Made by a program: the position numbers and the translations under genes. 64,000 bases of DNA. Source: Promethearchaeota archaeon. Lineage in GTDB: Archaea; Asgardarchaeota; Lokiarchaeia; Sigyniarchaeales; SOKP01. The stretch is taken from positions 512,001 to 576,000 of the forward strand of contig JAEOUA010000006.1 in the NCBI GenBank assembly GCA_016839555.1, read 5' to 3'. The notes below the pieces were generated by a model. That model made no database searches and was not told the DNA's origin. It saw only the letters and a list, made by a program, of their open reading frames with translations. Positions 17,094 through 22,558 of the stretch are shown here, one piece after another. Each line of letters begins with the position of its first letter. Position 1 is the first letter of the stretch.

Positions 17094-18089
17094 TTATATT
17101 TCGATTTCTATATCCTTAAATTCTTCATCTTGTATTAATGATATCCTTTTATTATTACTAAGAAACATTAAAGCTAAGAACATTCTCACTAATTCATATT
17201 TTCTACCCAAAATATTCTCTTCATCTTCACTAATTAATTTTATTAATTCAAAGAAACTAGTTTTTACTTTTCCTTCAAGATTAATATTTGCTTTGATTTT
17301 ATTATACCAGCTTTCATGTAATTCCTCAATAGACATTTCTCTTCCACTAATATGTTTGAGTAATTCTTTCGGAAGTGTTGCCTCAGATTTTTGCTGCTTT
17401 TTTTTATTTAATTCTTGCTCTCGCTTAAGACGCCTTCTTTTTAATTTTTCTTTTTTCTGCATAGTTTCTATGATCCCCGCCCTCATGGCTTCAAATAATT
17501 CCTCTTGACTAGAAGTTTTTAATTTAGGTCTAATGGGTTGCGTAAGTGTTTTTGGAATTCTTCGCTGGGTTGTTCTCCTTAATTTTTCAATCATTTCTTG
17601 CTTCTGTATTTCTTCCTCTTCCTTAATAACACTTTTTATTTTATAACGATGTAGTGAAGCGGAGTTTTTTAAGGCAATACCTGAAACTTTATAATTTATA
17701 AAATCCTCTGAAAGCATTTTACTAAAGAATTTGTCTACTAAACTTGAAAGATCGTAGAATGCAACATCTGATTCTTTTGCTAATTCAAAATTTAAAAGAA
17801 CACTAAATGGGGGTTTTTGCCAGAACTTTAATCCTATTTCTTTTTTCTTATATAGAGGCTCTTGTTCATCCGTTTCAAAGCCAACTATTAGCTCTTCATC
17901 CAGATTTTCTTGTTTTGTCCGATCCACAAATTCCGGATGAGAAACAACTTTAGTTAATAATTTAATAATATCTTCTTTTTTTAATCCAGATGGGATCGAA
18001 ATATTATTAATTGAAGCAAATTCCCTTAAATCTTTTACCGTCCTGCCAGTAAAATTATATTCTTGATTTATTTCTTTTTTTTTCGTCAT
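17094..18089 (-). CDS. scpA: Kleisin ScpA with N-terminal HeH/Rho-N-like extension
   Basis: DVAFYDLSSLVDKF..SGIALKNSASLHRYK N-domain; C-terminal winged helix SFFEL..VRMFLALMFL....ISLIQDEEFKDI; lies between smc and scpB. Confidence 0.85.
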   Translation of the reverse strand: MTKKKEINQEYNFTGRTVKDLREFASINNISIPSGLKKEDIIKLLTKVVSHPEFVDRTKQENLDEELIVGFETDEQEPLYKKKEIGLKFWQKPPFSVLLNFELAKESDVAFYDLSSLVDKFFSKMLSEDFINYKVSGIALKNSASLHRYKIKSVIKEEEEIQKQEMIEKLRRTTQRRIPKTLTQPIRPKLKTSSQEELFEAMRAGIIETMQKKEKLKRRRLKREQELNKKKQQKSEATLPKELLKHISGREMSIEELHESWYNKIKANINLEGKVKTSFFELIKLISEDEENILGRKYELVRMFLALMFLSNNKRISLIQDEEFKDIEIEI

Positions 18090-18112: not shown

Positions 18113-21100
18113 TTATGTTTCAGAGGGTATATCCTCTTTTTCAAGCAATTTTTTAGCTTCCTCTTGTAAATCTATGCTAAAAATATCTGTTATTCCACTC
18201 TGTGGCATGGATACACCATAAATTCTGTCCGCATTCACAATATTCTCTTCTCTATGGCTTATTATTAAAAATTGTGCTTGAGAGGCAAACTCCTTTATTA
18301 ACATAGATACACGGTGTACATTTGGACCATCTAAGGCCGCATCAATCTCGTCCATTATGTAAAATGGTGCTGGGAGGAATTCCTGTACAGCAAATATAAA
18401 TGAAAGTGCCACCAACGTTTTTTCTCCTCCACTTAATATTTCTAAACTTGAAATCTTCTTTCCTCTGGGACGAGCTTCAATGCTAACACCCCCCTCAAAT
18501 GGTGAGTCTGGGCGATCTAAAATCATTTTTGCTGATCCTCCTGGAGAAAGCTTTTGAAAAATGCCGGAAAATTCTCTATTTATTTCATGATAAGATTTCA
18601 TAAAAGTTTGGGTTTTTTCTAATTCAATTTTATCGATAGCATCTAAAATTGATTTTCTTTCTCTCTGAATTGTTTGTCTTCTCATATCAATTTCATCAAA
18701 TCTTTCTTTAACTGTATCATATTCTTTAATCGCCTTTAGGTTTACCGGTTCTAATGCTTTTTTACGATTTATTGCTTCTTTAATATCTTCTTCTAGTTTT
18801 TTTTCCGTAATTTCGCTAGTTATTCGAGGAAGCGCCCCAAAATCCTTTGATCGTTGATATAAAGTTTCAATTTGATCATTAATAATAATTTTTTTCGACT
18901 CCAAGTTATTTATCTTTGAATTTTCCATTGACAGATCAGATTTTAAATCCGTATAGACTTTTTGATAGGATTTTTGTTTTTCCCAAGACTCATCTTTATT
19001 GTGTATTAATTCATCAATTTCTACTTCCTTTTCTTCCTTTTTAGATTTTACTTGTTCAATACCTTTTAAATTTTCATTAATTTCTTTATTTAAATCTTGA
19101 ATTTGAGTTTGGGTTTGTTCAATCTCTTTAGTAAGAGAAATTATTTTTTCTTCTCTTTCTTGATTTTTTTTAAGGTTGTTTATCTCATTTTGGATATTTT
19201 GAAGGTCAATATTAAACTTATTTAAGCTCTCTTGAGCATTTTTTTGGGTTTCAATTTCCTTTTTCTTGTCTTTCCTTATCTCATCAATTTCTTTTTGCTT
19301 TCTATTTACATCTTCTTCAAGAGTTTGTACTTTTTGTCTTAAATTCTTAATAATATTTTCGCTTTCCGCAATCTTTTCCTCAGAATTAAGATTTTCTTTT
19401 TCTAATTCTTCTACTGAATTAATTATTCTCTGAATATTTTGTAAAGATCTCAATTTATCCAAAATTTTTTCTAAGTCCTTGTTTTTTTCATCAATTTGAG
19501 TTTGCAATATATCATTTATTTCCCAGAACTTCTCTTTTTCAGTATTTAAATCTTCTATTTTTTGTTCTATTTCTTCTTTTTGAGTCTTAAGAGTATTTAT
19601 TTTCTCCTCTGTATCATTTATAAGCCCTTTTTTATTTTCAATTGAATCCTTAAAATTTTGTATACTTTGATCTAGTTCTTCAATATTTTCAAATAAATTT
19701 TGGATACCTTTTAAATCCTGCAATTTGATTTGAATGTTTTGTAATATATTTTGTTTATCTTCTATTTTCTTCTGAATCTCTGAAATATTATTCCAATTTT
19801 GGTCTTTTAACTCTTTTAATTCTGCAATTGCTTGGTTTTTTTCTTCTTTCTCCTTTTGTTTTTGATTAATTAATTCATTTCTGTTATTTATCTCAATCTG
19901 ATATTTCTTAATTTTTTCTTTTAACTCATTAATTTTATTCTCAATGTCTTCTAAATTATTCTTTTTTACCGTGAGATCTGTAGAGTGGTGATCCATTTTA
20001 ATATTTAATTCAGATATTTGTTTCTCAACATCATTTATTTCATTCTCCTGAGTTTTTACATTTTCATTAATCTCATCTAATTGTCCATAGAGATCTTGAC
20101 TTTTTGACATAGTTAATTTTCTTAAGGAGATATGAATATTTTCTAGTATTTCCATTAGGTCTTGTACGAAATTATCAAAATTTGAAGTAGAATCTTGAAT
20201 AGCAATGTCAACAGAATCTTTAACCCTATAAATCAATTGTTCTATTGTTTGATCAGCATTTTCAGTAAATAGAGATAATGTTTTTAGTATGGAATCTAAT
20301 TTTTCTCTCATCTCTCTTATTTCATCACCTTCTTCACTCACTTCTTCAATTGATTTCATCATCTCGATAACGTCTAACAAAAAATTTTCAAAATTTTCTG
20401 CAGACATTTCAATTGCTTCTGAATTTGATTGTTGAATATTACTTTTTATTGATTCAACAGAAATATTTATGTTTTGAGTTAGCATGTTTAAAATTTGGAG
20501 TATACCTTTTATATCTTCTTTGTCTCTATCATATTCTTGCTCAGCTCTCTCTATTCGAGCCTTTGTTCTTTCTTTTTCAGAATTTAAGCTCTCAAGGCGG
20601 TTAAGAACATTATCTTTTCTATTATTAAAATTTAGTGTTTTTTCTTCAATAGTTCGAATATTTTTTTCTAAATCTTCTATACTTAATGCTAAATGGTTTT
20701 TATTTCGATTTAAATCAGTTAATTCTTTAGAAAAGAGATTTATTTTAGTATTTATGTTACTAATTTTTGCCTCGTTATCTTTAATTTCAGACAAAATTGT
20801 ATTTTGCTGCATTTTAAGAAGCTCTAAATTTTTTTCATTTTCTTTATACTTAAAATTCGCATCATTCACATTTTTTCTAAGTTCTTCGATCTTATTGTTG
20901 ATTTCATTCCTCTCTTCAATTAAGTTTTTAATAGTGGTTTCAACTTTTTTTCCTTCGACTAAATCTTTAATTTTTTGTTCAATTTGTTCTCTTTTTATTT
21001 TATTTTTTTCGATATTTTCCTTATATAATTTAATTTCTGTATTAATTGAAGATAAAGTGGATTGTAGTTCGGCGATTGTTGCATTTAGTTGATTTTTTCT

Positions 21101-22558
21101 TTCTTGTTGTGAATTTATATTATTTTCAAGTGTTTTTCTTTTAGAATTCTCCTCAGATAATGAAGTTTTAATTTCTTCGATTTCTTTTCTGATTTTATTT
21201 TCTATTTCTTTAGTTTTGTTAATGGCATCCTCGATACTCTCTGATTCTCCTTTTAACTTATTTAATTCTTCTTCTAGTTTTCGCTTTTTATTTTGATTAT
21301 TTTCTATATTTTCTCTCAAAACATTGATACTTGCTTCTTGGGAAGATATCTCTTGTTTTAGATTAGATATTTCATTTAAAATGTTTGCTTTTTTCTCTTC
21401 TTCAAAATTAATTTTTTCATCTAATTGTGCTTGATTCTTTTGTGTATTTTCAATTTCTTTTTTCAATTCTTCTATTTTTAGTTCAATAGACTCACTTTTT
21501 TTCTTTGCCTCTTCAATAAGAGTTTCATATGTTTGATTTTGTTCTAATTTCATCTGAAGAGCTTCTGCTTTTTCTTTTTCCTTTTCTAATTTATTCACAG
21601 TTTTATTAGCAAGATCAAGTTTAGTTTCATTAGCAGATAATTCCGTCTTAATTTGAGTAATTTTATTGTTTATTTCATCTCTTTCTTTTTCTTTTTCATT
21701 AACTAAACCCTGAATCTTCTCCATTATTATAGATTCTTGATCCAAGAGCGCTTTTTGATGTTTAATTTTTTCTTCTAATTCTTCAATGATTTTTTTAGAA
21801 TCCTCAATATTTTTTCCTAAATCATCTTCTTCTTCTCTTAATTTTGATATTTTTAATGCAATTAATTTTGCATTCAAATCTGAAATCGTTTTCTCTAAAT
21901 CTTTCCAAGCTAATGCATCATTTTTTTCTTTTTCAACTTTTTTTAATTGAGAAGAGACTTCTTTAAAAATTGCTTGAAATTGTCCTAATTCTCTTTCAGC
22001 TTTTTCTAACTCCTTCAATGTCTCATCTTTCATATCATCATATTTCTGCAGACCAATTAATTCTTCAATAAACTGTCTTCTTTCTTCAGTATTCATATGG
22101 GTTAATTCCACAATTTTCCCTTGTAAAACAAATTGATTTGAGCCATCGGGATCAATATTTGCTGACGCTAAAACATCAAGAATTTGTTGTCTGGTAGCCA
22201 TTTTCCCATTCATTTTATATTTATTCCCCTTATCTCTTCTTACCACTCTAGTTATTTGAAATTCATCAGTCCCTCCTGGAAAAATCCCTTCACTATTGTC
22301 AAAATAAAGGGTTACAGAAGCTTTATTTACAGGTTTATAACCTTTTGACCCAGCGAAAATTAAATCTGCGAGTTTTTCTGCCCTCATAGTTTTTTTTGAA
22401 AGCCTCCCTAAAGCAAAACATAAAGCATCTATAATATTGCTTTTCCCAGCACCATTAGGTCCAACAATACAAGTAAATCCCGGTGAAAGTTTTATCGTAA
22501 CTGTTCTATCTCCGAAAGATTTAAAGCCGGTCATACTTATCCGCTTGATATATGTCAA
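18113..22558 (-). CDS. smc: Chromosome segregation protein SMC (long, no recognisable hinge)
   Basis: GFKSF, Walker A GPNGAGKSN, Q-loop VLQG, PVNLKAI, signature LSGGEK, Walker B MDEIDAALD; TTG start with upstream GGAG. Confidence 0.93.
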   Translation of the reverse strand: MTYIKRISMTGFKSFGDRTVTIKLSPGFTCIVGPNGAGKSNIIDALCFALGRLSKKTMRAEKLADLIFAGSKGYKPVNKASVTLYFDNSEGIFPGGTDEFQITRVVRRDKGNKYKMNGKMATRQQILDVLASANIDPDGSNQFVLQGKIVELTHMNTEERRQFIEELIGLQKYDDMKDETLKELEKAERELGQFQAIFKEVSSQLKKVEKEKNDALAWKDLEKTISDLNAKLIALKISKLREEEDDLGKNIEDSKKIIEELEEKIKHQKALLDQESIIMEKIQGLVNEKEKERDEINNKITQIKTELSANETKLDLANKTVNKLEKEKEKAEALQMKLEQNQTYETLIEEAKKKSESIELKIEELKKEIENTQKNQAQLDEKINFEEEKKANILNEISNLKQEISSQEASINVLRENIENNQNKKRKLEEELNKLKGESESIEDAINKTKEIENKIRKEIEEIKTSLSEENSKRKTLENNINSQQERKNQLNATIAELQSTLSSINTEIKLYKENIEKNKIKREQIEQKIKDLVEGKKVETTIKNLIEERNEINNKIEELRKNVNDANFKYKENEKNLELLKMQQNTILSEIKDNEAKISNINTKINLFSKELTDLNRNKNHLALSIEDLEKNIRTIEEKTLNFNNRKDNVLNRLESLNSEKERTKARIERAEQEYDRDKEDIKGILQILNMLTQNINISVESIKSNIQQSNSEAIEMSAENFENFLLDVIEMMKSIEEVSEEGDEIREMREKLDSILKTLSLFTENADQTIEQLIYRVKDSVDIAIQDSTSNFDNFVQDLMEILENIHISLRKLTMSKSQDLYGQLDEINENVKTQENEINDVEKQISELNIKMDHHSTDLTVKKNNLEDIENKINELKEKIKKYQIEINNRNELINQKQKEKEEKNQAIAELKELKDQNWNNISEIQKKIEDKQNILQNIQIKLQDLKGIQNLFENIEELDQSIQNFKDSIENKKGLINDTEEKINTLKTQKEEIEQKIEDLNTEKEKFWEINDILQTQIDEKNKDLEKILDKLRSLQNIQRIINSVEELEKENLNSEEKIAESENIIKNLRQKVQTLEEDVNRKQKEIDEIRKDKKKEIETQKNAQESLNKFNIDLQNIQNEINNLKKNQEREEKIISLTKEIEQTQTQIQDLNKEINENLKGIEQVKSKKEEKEVEIDELIHNKDESWEKQKSYQKVYTDLKSDLSMENSKINNLESKKIIINDQIETLYQRSKDFGALPRITSEITEKKLEEDIKEAINRKKALEPVNLKAIKEYDTVKERFDEIDMRRQTIQRERKSILDAIDKIELEKTQTFMKSYHEINREFSGIFQKLSPGGSAKMILDRPDSPFEGGVSIEARPRGKKISSLEILSGGEKTLVALSFIFAVQEFLPAPFYIMDEIDAALDGPNVHRVSMLIKEFASQAQFLIISHREENIVNADRIYGVSMPQSGITDIFSIDLQEEAKKLLEKEDIPSET

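Follow-up and report, generated by a model that had tools for sequence, protein, structure and literature searches.

A hinge-less, long-armed Smc paralogue with a duplicated helical module at its apex in Lokiarchaeales

The window analyzed in this study is a stretch of 64,000 nucleotides from a Promethearchaeota archaeon (GenBank assembly GCA_016839555.1, contig JAEOUA010000006.1, positions 512,001 to 576,000). It encodes an SMC (structural maintenance of chromosomes) protein, Smc (P0001), which lacks the hinge domain and carries, at the midpoint of the chain, a tandemly duplicated module predicted to be entirely helical. Open reading frames (ORFs) for the kleisin ScpA and the kite protein ScpB lie downstream of smc in the same orientation. 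Such an arrangement had been noticed in an earlier annotation of this DNA made from the letters alone (hereafter, the sequence-only reading), and its claims are considered below along with the results that bear on them.

The smc-scpA-scpB Locus

The Smc product (1481 amino acids, aa) was assigned by the Pfam family PF02463 (SMC_N, 150 bits) and by the NCBIfam model TIGR02168, which scored 622.8 bits and hence above its cut-off of 567.35; the related model TIGR02169 (647 bits) stayed below its cut-off of 729.4. Furthermore, all motifs of the ATP-binding cassette (ABC) head were found intact, namely GPNGAGKS at residue 33, the signature LSGGEK at 1375, the Walker B/D-loop segment MDEIDAALD at 1402 and the H-loop ISHR at 1433, as the sequence-only reading had stated. 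Its statement that scpA and scpB follow smc was likewise correct: ScpB is a clear match to its families, and ScpA, although weak (PF02616, 22.5 bits, E=1.3e-4, sub-threshold at a cut-off of 24.6), occupies the expected position. The order smc-scpA-scpB was also observed in two distant relatives (G147 and G213), that is, in three genomes together with the window's own. The condensin-like complex suggested earlier was thereby corroborated by the operon structure and the Pfam and NCBIfam assignments, and the locus very probably encodes a real and functional hinge-less Smc-ScpA-ScpB complex of the condensin type. Coordinates of all features are summarized in Table 1.

Table 1. Features of the smc-scpA-scpB locus, with positions in the window and the evidence for each feature (AF2, AlphaFold2; A1, orthologue alignment of the apex region).
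Feature	Position	Strand	Evidence
smc (P0001), hinge-less long-armed Smc paralogue	18113..22558	-	ORF, 1481 aa; SMC_N 150 bits, no SMC_hinge
ABC ATPase head, N-terminal half, aa 1-170, Walker A GPNGAGKS aa 33-40	22049..22558	-	0.80 column conservation, 14 orthologues
N-terminal coiled-coil arm, aa 171-675 (~505 aa)	20534..22048	-	no Pro/Cys, 42% charged; AF2 helix aa 601-740 continuous
Apex module, aa 676-837, conserved, in the place of the hinge	20048..20533	-	alignment A1; module profile; composition compared with arms
Repeat 1, aa 686-737 (ILQILNMLTQNINISVESIK...)	20348..20503	-	BLASTP and hhalign
Acidic variable linker, aa 738-756 (47% D+E), predicted hairpin turn aa 741-744	20291..20347	-	AF2 loop (A1 positions 142-145), orthologue insertions, composition
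Repeat 2, aa 757-808 (ILKTLSLFTENADQTIEQLI...)	20135..20290	-	BLASTP and hhalign
C-terminal coiled-coil arm, aa 838-1270	18749..20047	-	AF2, composition, no Pro up to aa 1243
ABC ATPase head, C-terminal half, aa 1271-1481	18116..18748	-	0.89 conservation, 14 orthologues
scpA (kleisin), 331 aa	17094..18089	-	PF02616 weak match aa 161-330; between smc and scpB
scpB (kite), 225 aa	16389..17066	-	PF04079 111.5 bits; TIGR00281 92.3 bits, above 89.2 cut-off

Some further observations concern the accessory genes. At the N-terminus of ScpA (window 17940-18089, minus strand), weak SAP/HeH/Rho_N-like matches were recorded for aa 17-46 (E 0.002-0.005, all below the respective cut-offs); to our knowledge, canonical ScpA has no N-terminal module of this kind. 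In G147 and G213, ScpB of the hinge-less operon comprises 331-332 aa (L014:5963-6961, minus strand; L016:13783-14778, plus strand), compared with 225 aa in the window, and carries an N-terminal extension of ~165 aa ahead of the ScpB domain; ScpB encoded beside the canonical Smc of the same two genomes is only 196-197 aa long. Moreover, an antisense ORF of 202 aa is located inside smc (window 20484-21092, plus strand), where it overlaps the apex-coding region. It most likely represents a chance open frame in sequence of 26% G+C.

Absence of a Hinge and of a Zinc Hook

No match to the SMC_hinge family PF06470 was obtained at E<=10 when either the whole Smc or aa 560-920 alone was scanned with hmmscan, and when all six frames of the complete genome were searched with the same profile, a hinge was placed solely in another gene, on contig C7. 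The glycine-rich hinge pattern GX6GX3GG is absent from Smc, and glycine occurs in the central 200 residues at positions 685, 744 and 825 only. Furthermore, no Pro was found between aa 170 and 1243. The sole Cys residues of the protein are 30 and 47, both in the head, so that Smc has no CxxC zinc hook. A profile search of the PDB with alignment A1 returned no hinge; its only matches were coiled coils, either designed or natural, that lined up with the regions flanking the module, and none matched the module itself. Comparison of the AF2 model of the apex with the PDB by means of Foldseek retrieved no SMC or MukB hinge and yielded generic coiled-coil hairpins, such as methyl-accepting chemotaxis proteins (MCPs), the MukB elbow and fragments of Smc arms, with E-values of at least 1.5e-3. 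Since the model contains no strands and matches no SMC or MukB hinge, the fold comparison agrees with the hidden Markov model (HMM) scan. A feature search of the ESM Atlas with aa 668-837 returned unnamed fragment clusters only (~0.90). The Gly-rich alpha/beta hinge and the Rad50-type CxxC hook, both of which the sequence-only reading had failed to find, are thus indeed missing.

Assignments to other hinge-less or hook-bearing members of the superfamily were examined and rejected. Identity as Rad50/SbcC is contradicted by the missing CxxC motif and by scores of 38-112 bits for Rad50 NCBIfam models with cut-offs of 700-1087. RecN, whose model TIGR00634 scored 32 bits where 408 are required, is incompatible with arms of ~500 aa and adjacent scpAB genes. 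For the archaea-specific SMC-related proteins (ASRP) / arcadin-4, the models NF045487 (175 bits against 300) and NF053563 (43 bits against 860) remained below their cut-offs.

Internal Duplication and Composition of the Apex Module

The segment at window positions 20095-20545, corresponding to aa ~672-821 of Smc, includes two repeats of ~52 aa each, whose starts are 71 aa apart and which are arranged around the chain midpoint (aa 741). BLASTP comparison of aa 670-745 with aa 746-830 aligned the repeats with E=6e-10 (31% identity over 59 aa, offset 71 aa). Profiles of the two repeats built from 14 orthologues matched each other in hhalign with a probability of 97.6% and E=3.8e-12 over 60 columns, whereas nine control segments of the same length, taken from the arms, gave E-values of 0.11-0.49. 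The duplication is therefore real and does not reflect generic coiled-coil similarity.

For aa 600-900, AF2 was run with a 38-row alignment and predicted two unbroken helices without strands (mean predicted local distance difference test, pLDDT, 84.7). The single turn of the model comprises four residues, aa 741-744, and falls within the acidic linker between the repeats; the repeats would thus form the two antiparallel strands of a hairpin tip. In alignment A1 this linker is variable and tolerates insertions, Pro and Gly among orthologues. The tandem helical duplication with 71-aa spacing at the protein midpoint and the all-helical nature of the central module, both proposed in the sequence-only reading, consequently stand.

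In composition, the module differs markedly from the arms. Large hydrophobic residues account for a fraction of 0.40-0.42 in the module compared with 0.26-0.27 in the arms, charged residues for 0.17-0.25 compared with 0.41-0.42, and Lys plus Arg for 0.04-0.06 compared with 0.18-0.20; the net charge of the module is -18 over 123 aa. In a two-stranded coiled coil, about two in seven positions are hydrophobic. The hydrophobic excess of the module suggests burial of a larger share of the helix surface, of the kind found in four-helix bundles. Because the module is acidic and nearly devoid of Lys and Arg, it probably does not take over the DNA-binding role of canonical hinges. Within the window's own family, column conservation is higher in the module (0.80-0.83) than in the arms (0.65-0.67), and hardly any variation is seen in repeat 1 of alignment A1. 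With the other family of the order considered as well (see below), the module is a stable homologous unit, yet one without uniformly exceptional constraint.

Coiled-Coil Arms

The arms of Smc measure ~500 aa, compared with ~340 aa in canonical Smc; in a canonical relative of 1195 aa, the hinge is located at ~aa 530-642. Boundaries are approximate, the N-terminal arm extending from ~171 to 675-685 and the C-terminal arm from ~810-838 to 1270. Based on their coiled-coil composition and on pLDDT values >90 in the segments flanking the module, the arms are predicted to form a long intramolecular antiparallel coiled coil. Their length would be roughly 75-80 nm instead of ~50 nm, which is about two coiled-coil superhelical periods beyond the usual. 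Arm lengths of natural prokaryotic Smc proteins cluster at 238, 341 and 515 aa (Burmann et al. 2017, PMC5344682), and Smc function varies with arm length with a period of ~91-99 aa (PMC5344682). Judged by the residue count, the arms described here fit the third and longest of these natural modes. Moreover, the length of the hinge-less Smc is kept within ~14 aa across the family.

Distribution of the Module

In order to determine the distribution of the module, 301 genomes of the phylum were searched with a module profile and with PF06470. The sample includes 75 genomes of the order Lokiarchaeales, of which 68 belong to the window's own family (f1) and seven to its sister family (f2). The module was detected in 60 of the 68 f1 genomes and in all seven f2 genomes, i.e., in 67 of the 75 members of the order. 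It was found in neither of the two genomes sampled from other families of the same class. Elsewhere in the phylum, two of the other 225 sampled genomes were positive, one of them with three fragmentary copies, and these two occurrences may be binning errors. The distribution across Asgard genomes, about which the sequence-only reading had asked, is thus largely confined to one order.

A word-seeded search with aa 640-860 retrieved 168 proteins; the 120 listed share 56-84% identity over the module. Among these listed relatives, the complete ones are nearly all 1473-1487 aa long, and none has a PF06470 match. Where source names are given, they refer to proteins of Lokiarchaeota, Promethearchaeota, Thorarchaeota, Hodarchaeota and Hermodarchaeota metagenome-assembled genomes (MAGs), and one protein of the family is named LCGC14_0492950. 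When 1.84 billion cluster representatives were scanned exhaustively with HMMER, the module was recovered in 28 clusters only. Outside the order, an SMC protein labelled Candidatus Sigynarchaeota (P0141, 1296 aa) bears the module at aa 575-733 between arms of ~400 aa and has no hinge. This copy suggests that the module is older than the order or was transferred.

Paralogous Smc Proteins in the Order

The search with PF06470 revealed that most members of the order encode one weak hinge, with E-values of 1e-5 to 1e-10. In the genome under study, this hinge belongs to a second SMC of 1147 aa on contig C7:285204-288647 (minus strand; L011:7205-10648, minus strand), which matched PF06470 with 34.5 bits and thus above the threshold, shows a weak SMC_N match and groups with SMC5/6-like archaeal SMCs in the head-domain tree. 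Co-oriented ORFs of 227 aa and 427 aa flank this gene; they matched no Pfam or NCBIfam model and are candidates for its kleisin and kite subunits. In addition, a strong hinge (E ~1e-30 to 1e-35) was found within an ORF of ~1195-1206 aa in 13 of these 75 genomes, nine of them in f1 (genera g4, g6, g8 and g9) and four in f2. The PF06470 search of the sample detected no strong hinge in any genome of g1, to which the present genome belongs, or of g2, g3, g5 and g7. The question raised in the sequence-only reading, whether a second, hinge-bearing SMC exists, is accordingly answered by a divergent SMC5/6-like protein in this genome and by a canonical hinge-bearing Smc in the 13 relatives.

Both loci were read in two genomes (G147 and G213). 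In each of them, ScpA and ScpB come after the hinge-less Smc, and the canonical Smc, with a hinge score of 111-112 bits, precedes a short ScpB of its own. The hinge-less Smc is 31-38% identical in its head to a canonical Smc from the order.

A tree of 42 head-domain sequences was calculated with IQ-TREE under the LG+C20+F+G4 model. The hinge-less proteins group with 100/100 support into one clade, which has short internal branches on a long stem (0.9 substitutions per site), and the canonical Smc proteins of the order constitute another 100/100 clade; both divide into the same two families. The two clades lie within the canonical Asgard Smc radiation, the backbone of which is a polytomy. A 100/100 split separates the SMC5/6-like sequences, among them the second SMC of this genome, from the canonical side of the tree, to which the Smc described here belongs, and an SMC5/6-related identity was therefore rejected. 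Because some relatives also keep a canonical hinge-bearing Smc, the hinge-less protein is a lineage-specific paralogue and not a canonical Smc with an altered hinge. Forcing the two clades to be sisters cost 0.49 log-likelihood units and the approximately unbiased (AU) test did not reject this sisterhood (p=0.49; 0.491). Given this outcome and the polytomy, the data are consistent with a duplication at the order's base and do not demonstrate it. As judged from the tree and the distribution, the order's ancestor evidently possessed both complexes, with repeated later losses of the canonical one.

Hinge matches were also sparse in other families of the phylum, being absent or weak in f16 (0/11 genomes), f22 (0/7), f7 (5/28) and f24 (7/21). 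For example, a 1217-aa SMC of G102 (f24) has a strong SMC_N match and a hinge match of just 8e-5. Furthermore, SMC-like ORFs of ~950-1005 aa were noted in genomes of f7 (G026, G074) and f16 (G015, G036). Hinge divergence or loss may hence be more widespread among Asgard archaea.

The Module Outside SMC Proteins

Five clusters of proteins without an SMC head (P0142, P0144, P0145, P0147 and P0149; ~1000-1180 aa) contain two complete copies of the module, at ~aa 66-223 and 321-474, each with both repeats. After the modules come a beta-rich central region, another coiled coil and a Lys-rich tail resembling histone H1/HC2. This double-module protein, whose length in the family as a whole is ~930-1180 aa, was found in two sampled f2 genomes (L056:1178-4255 and L057:1412-4192, both minus strand) and in Promethearchaeota MAGs, and is absent from the genome under study. 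For its first 520 aa, AF2 predicted four helices of ~125 aa with turns at the same inter-repeat linkers. A Foldseek search with this model gave no informative match. In the two genomes inspected, the gene has JAB-domain and resolvase neighbors and no shared context.

Proposed Mechanism and Alternative Explanations

A kleisin must bridge two heads. In the proposed mechanism, each chain would fold back on itself, as in every SMC, here as a simple helical hairpin, the two strands of its tip being an ancient tandem duplication with the acidic loop at the midpoint. Two such tips would pack as a four-helix bundle, the step that is inferred, by which the Smc homodimer would be joined at its head-distal end, and the bundle would thus take over the constitutive dimerization role of the hinge. 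ScpA would bridge the two ATPase heads and ScpB would bind ScpA. The hinge-less complex would have arisen once and become the near-universal Smc of the order, after which the canonical hinge-bearing Smc was lost in most genera, including the one studied here. That the helical bundle replaces the hinge as a constitutive dimer interface is considered the probable reading, with moderate confidence. It is suggested by the composition of the module, its conservation in f1, the need for kleisin bridging and the precedents of RecN and the Rad50-hook chimera treated below. A homodimer prediction for two copies of aa 600-900 with alignment A1 gave, in a run without controls, a score of 0.01 and speaks neither for nor against binding.

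Several points weigh against apical dimerization. The pLDDT of the module is 60-80 and thus the lowest of the model, compared with >90 in the flanking coiled coil; either the absence of a partner or just uncertainty about the fold could account for this. In f2, conservation of the module (0.65) is barely higher than that of the arms (0.58-0.66), and between f1 and f2 the module (~35% identity) is no better preserved than the arms (33% and 27%). Moreover, as cited in PMC5526789, Bacillus subtilis Smc without a functional hinge retains some dimerization via arm-arm contacts, so that an apical dimerizer is not strictly required. The same result is in line with an alternative in which the apex is no homodimerizer and the chains are held together by ScpA, ATP-engaged heads and zipping of the arms, the tip serving as a docking site for a factor or as a latch onto the arm or head. 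This alternative also accords with the observation that nearly all faces of repeat 1 are invariant in f1, beyond the needs of a simple coiled-coil core, and with the tandem occurrence of the module in non-SMC proteins, on account of which it can be regarded as a portable interaction unit; the double-module protein with its Lys-rich tail is a candidate partner in some relatives. That protein, however, is absent here and was encountered in only two f2 genomes of the sample, and is therefore too rare to be a general partner. Furthermore, a hydrophobic and acidic helical tip is equally compatible with self-association. Docking without apical dimerization is accordingly rated as rather unlikely.

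It is very improbable that the chains do not fold back at all and instead pair with each other as one intermolecular antiparallel coiled coil, a ~160-nm rod that would bear composite heads at both ends and the paired repeats of the two chains in its center. In favor of this arrangement, there is no globular domain to form a turn, and owing to the homology of the repeats, pairing of repeat 1 with repeat 2 would be equally possible between chains and within one. However, the center of the chain is a variable acidic linker with insertions, Pro and Gly, which resembles a loop and not a continuous helix, and the AF2 monomer folds back with pLDDT >90 in the flanking antiparallel coiled coil. In addition, asymmetric bridging by ScpA requires two nearby heads, and a review (PMC4255302) describes intramolecular coiled coils in all SMC-family proteins studied. 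A canonical hinge too divergent for the HMM, a zinc hook and an assembly or annotation artefact were all rejected. The second SMC of this genome illustrates that Asgard hinges can match weakly (34.5 bits), and yet the region in question comprises just ~160 aa, is predicted to be fully helical, has three Gly and no strands, produced no PF06470 match at E<=10 and resembled no PDB hinge by profile or fold. Since there is neither a hinge nor a suitable Cys and the same architecture recurs in relatives, namely in >100 independent clusters and 67 sampled genomes, a hidden hinge or an artefact is effectively refuted.

Beyond a helical bundle as dimer interface, a wider role may be envisaged. The duplicated hairpin could be an undescribed, portable and self-associating apex domain with a ring-closing role in the principal condensin of Lokiarchaeales, and its tandem form could build a Lys-tailed chromatin protein that mimics or docks onto the Smc apex and tethers it to DNA. 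This broader proposal is speculative and regarded as unlikely as a whole. If true, it would define a new class of SMC dimerization or regulation modules and would imply that loop-extruding SMC-kleisin complexes need neither the hinge fold nor hinge-DNA contacts.

Comparison with Known Systems

The hinge is regarded as a universal and defining part of SMC-kleisin complexes and has been assigned functions in dimerization, DNA binding, DNA entry and the bypass of obstacles. In the order studied here, one of whose members is the lineage originally sequenced from sediments of Loki's Castle, a near-universal Smc-ScpAB appears to operate without it. Because most genera lost the canonical copy, the hinge-less complex, together with the SMC5/6-like complex, is presumably sufficient for chromosome maintenance. 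Two phylogenomic studies of archaeal SMC complexes described canonical and SMC5/6-related complexes in Asgard archaea, with extra duplications in Hodarchaeales, and did not mention a missing hinge; a literature search, which was not exhaustive, likewise yielded no report of Asgard SMCs that have lost the hinge. The present results indicate that Asgard SMC complexes diversified past these two described types. Phylogenetically, the hinge-less variant is restricted to this lineage and does not lie on the line of descent of eukaryotic SMC1-4.

The four-helix bundle of MCPs is built from two hairpins. The cytoplasmic signaling domain of an MCP (2ch7) was the best Foldseek match of the apex model (E=1.5e-3) and, like the apex, is a long helical hairpin, antiparallel and conserved at its tip. 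This resemblance concerns shape alone, with template modeling (TM) scores of 0.29-0.39, 13-14% identity and no homology.

Within the SMC superfamily, RecN likewise lacks a hinge and a hook. According to a review (PMC4255302, citing Pellegrino et al. 2012), it dimerizes via three apical alpha-helices, so that its coiled-coil tips associate through helices only. In contrast to the Lokiarchaeal Smc, RecN has a short coiled coil and neither kleisin nor kite, and the two apices show no recognizable relationship in sequence. An artificial precedent is provided by B. subtilis Smc with its hinge swapped for the zinc hook of Pyrococcus furiosus Rad50, which supported normal growth on rich medium (PMC5344682). 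This Smc(Zh) chimera is an Smc that works with a structurally unrelated apical dimerizer, as the protein described here would. It relies on a Zn-CxxC hook, whereas the Lokiarchaeal Smc is natural, has no Cys in arms or apex and is inferred to dimerize there; the latter thus offers a natural system that complements the chimera in asking which hinge functions are dispensable. Natural SMC-clade proteins without hinge and CxxC hook have also been reported from ocean metagenomes as 'hinge-less' SMC homologues attributed to Actinobacteria (PMC12153180). By their description, they differ in belonging to another domain of life and in not occurring alongside a regular SMC, and no replacement module, arm lengthening or linkage to ScpAB was described for them.

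One of the closest known systems is canonical prokaryotic Smc-ScpAB (TIGR02168/TIGR02169, PF02463 plus PF06470), with which the complex shares the split ABC head with all motifs, long arms and adjacent genes for ScpA and ScpB. It departs from this system by the duplicated helical hairpin in place of the hinge, by arms of ~500 instead of ~340 aa, and by its paralogous nature, the hinge-less clade coexisting with a canonical Smc and its ScpB in 13 of the 75 genomes sampled from the order.

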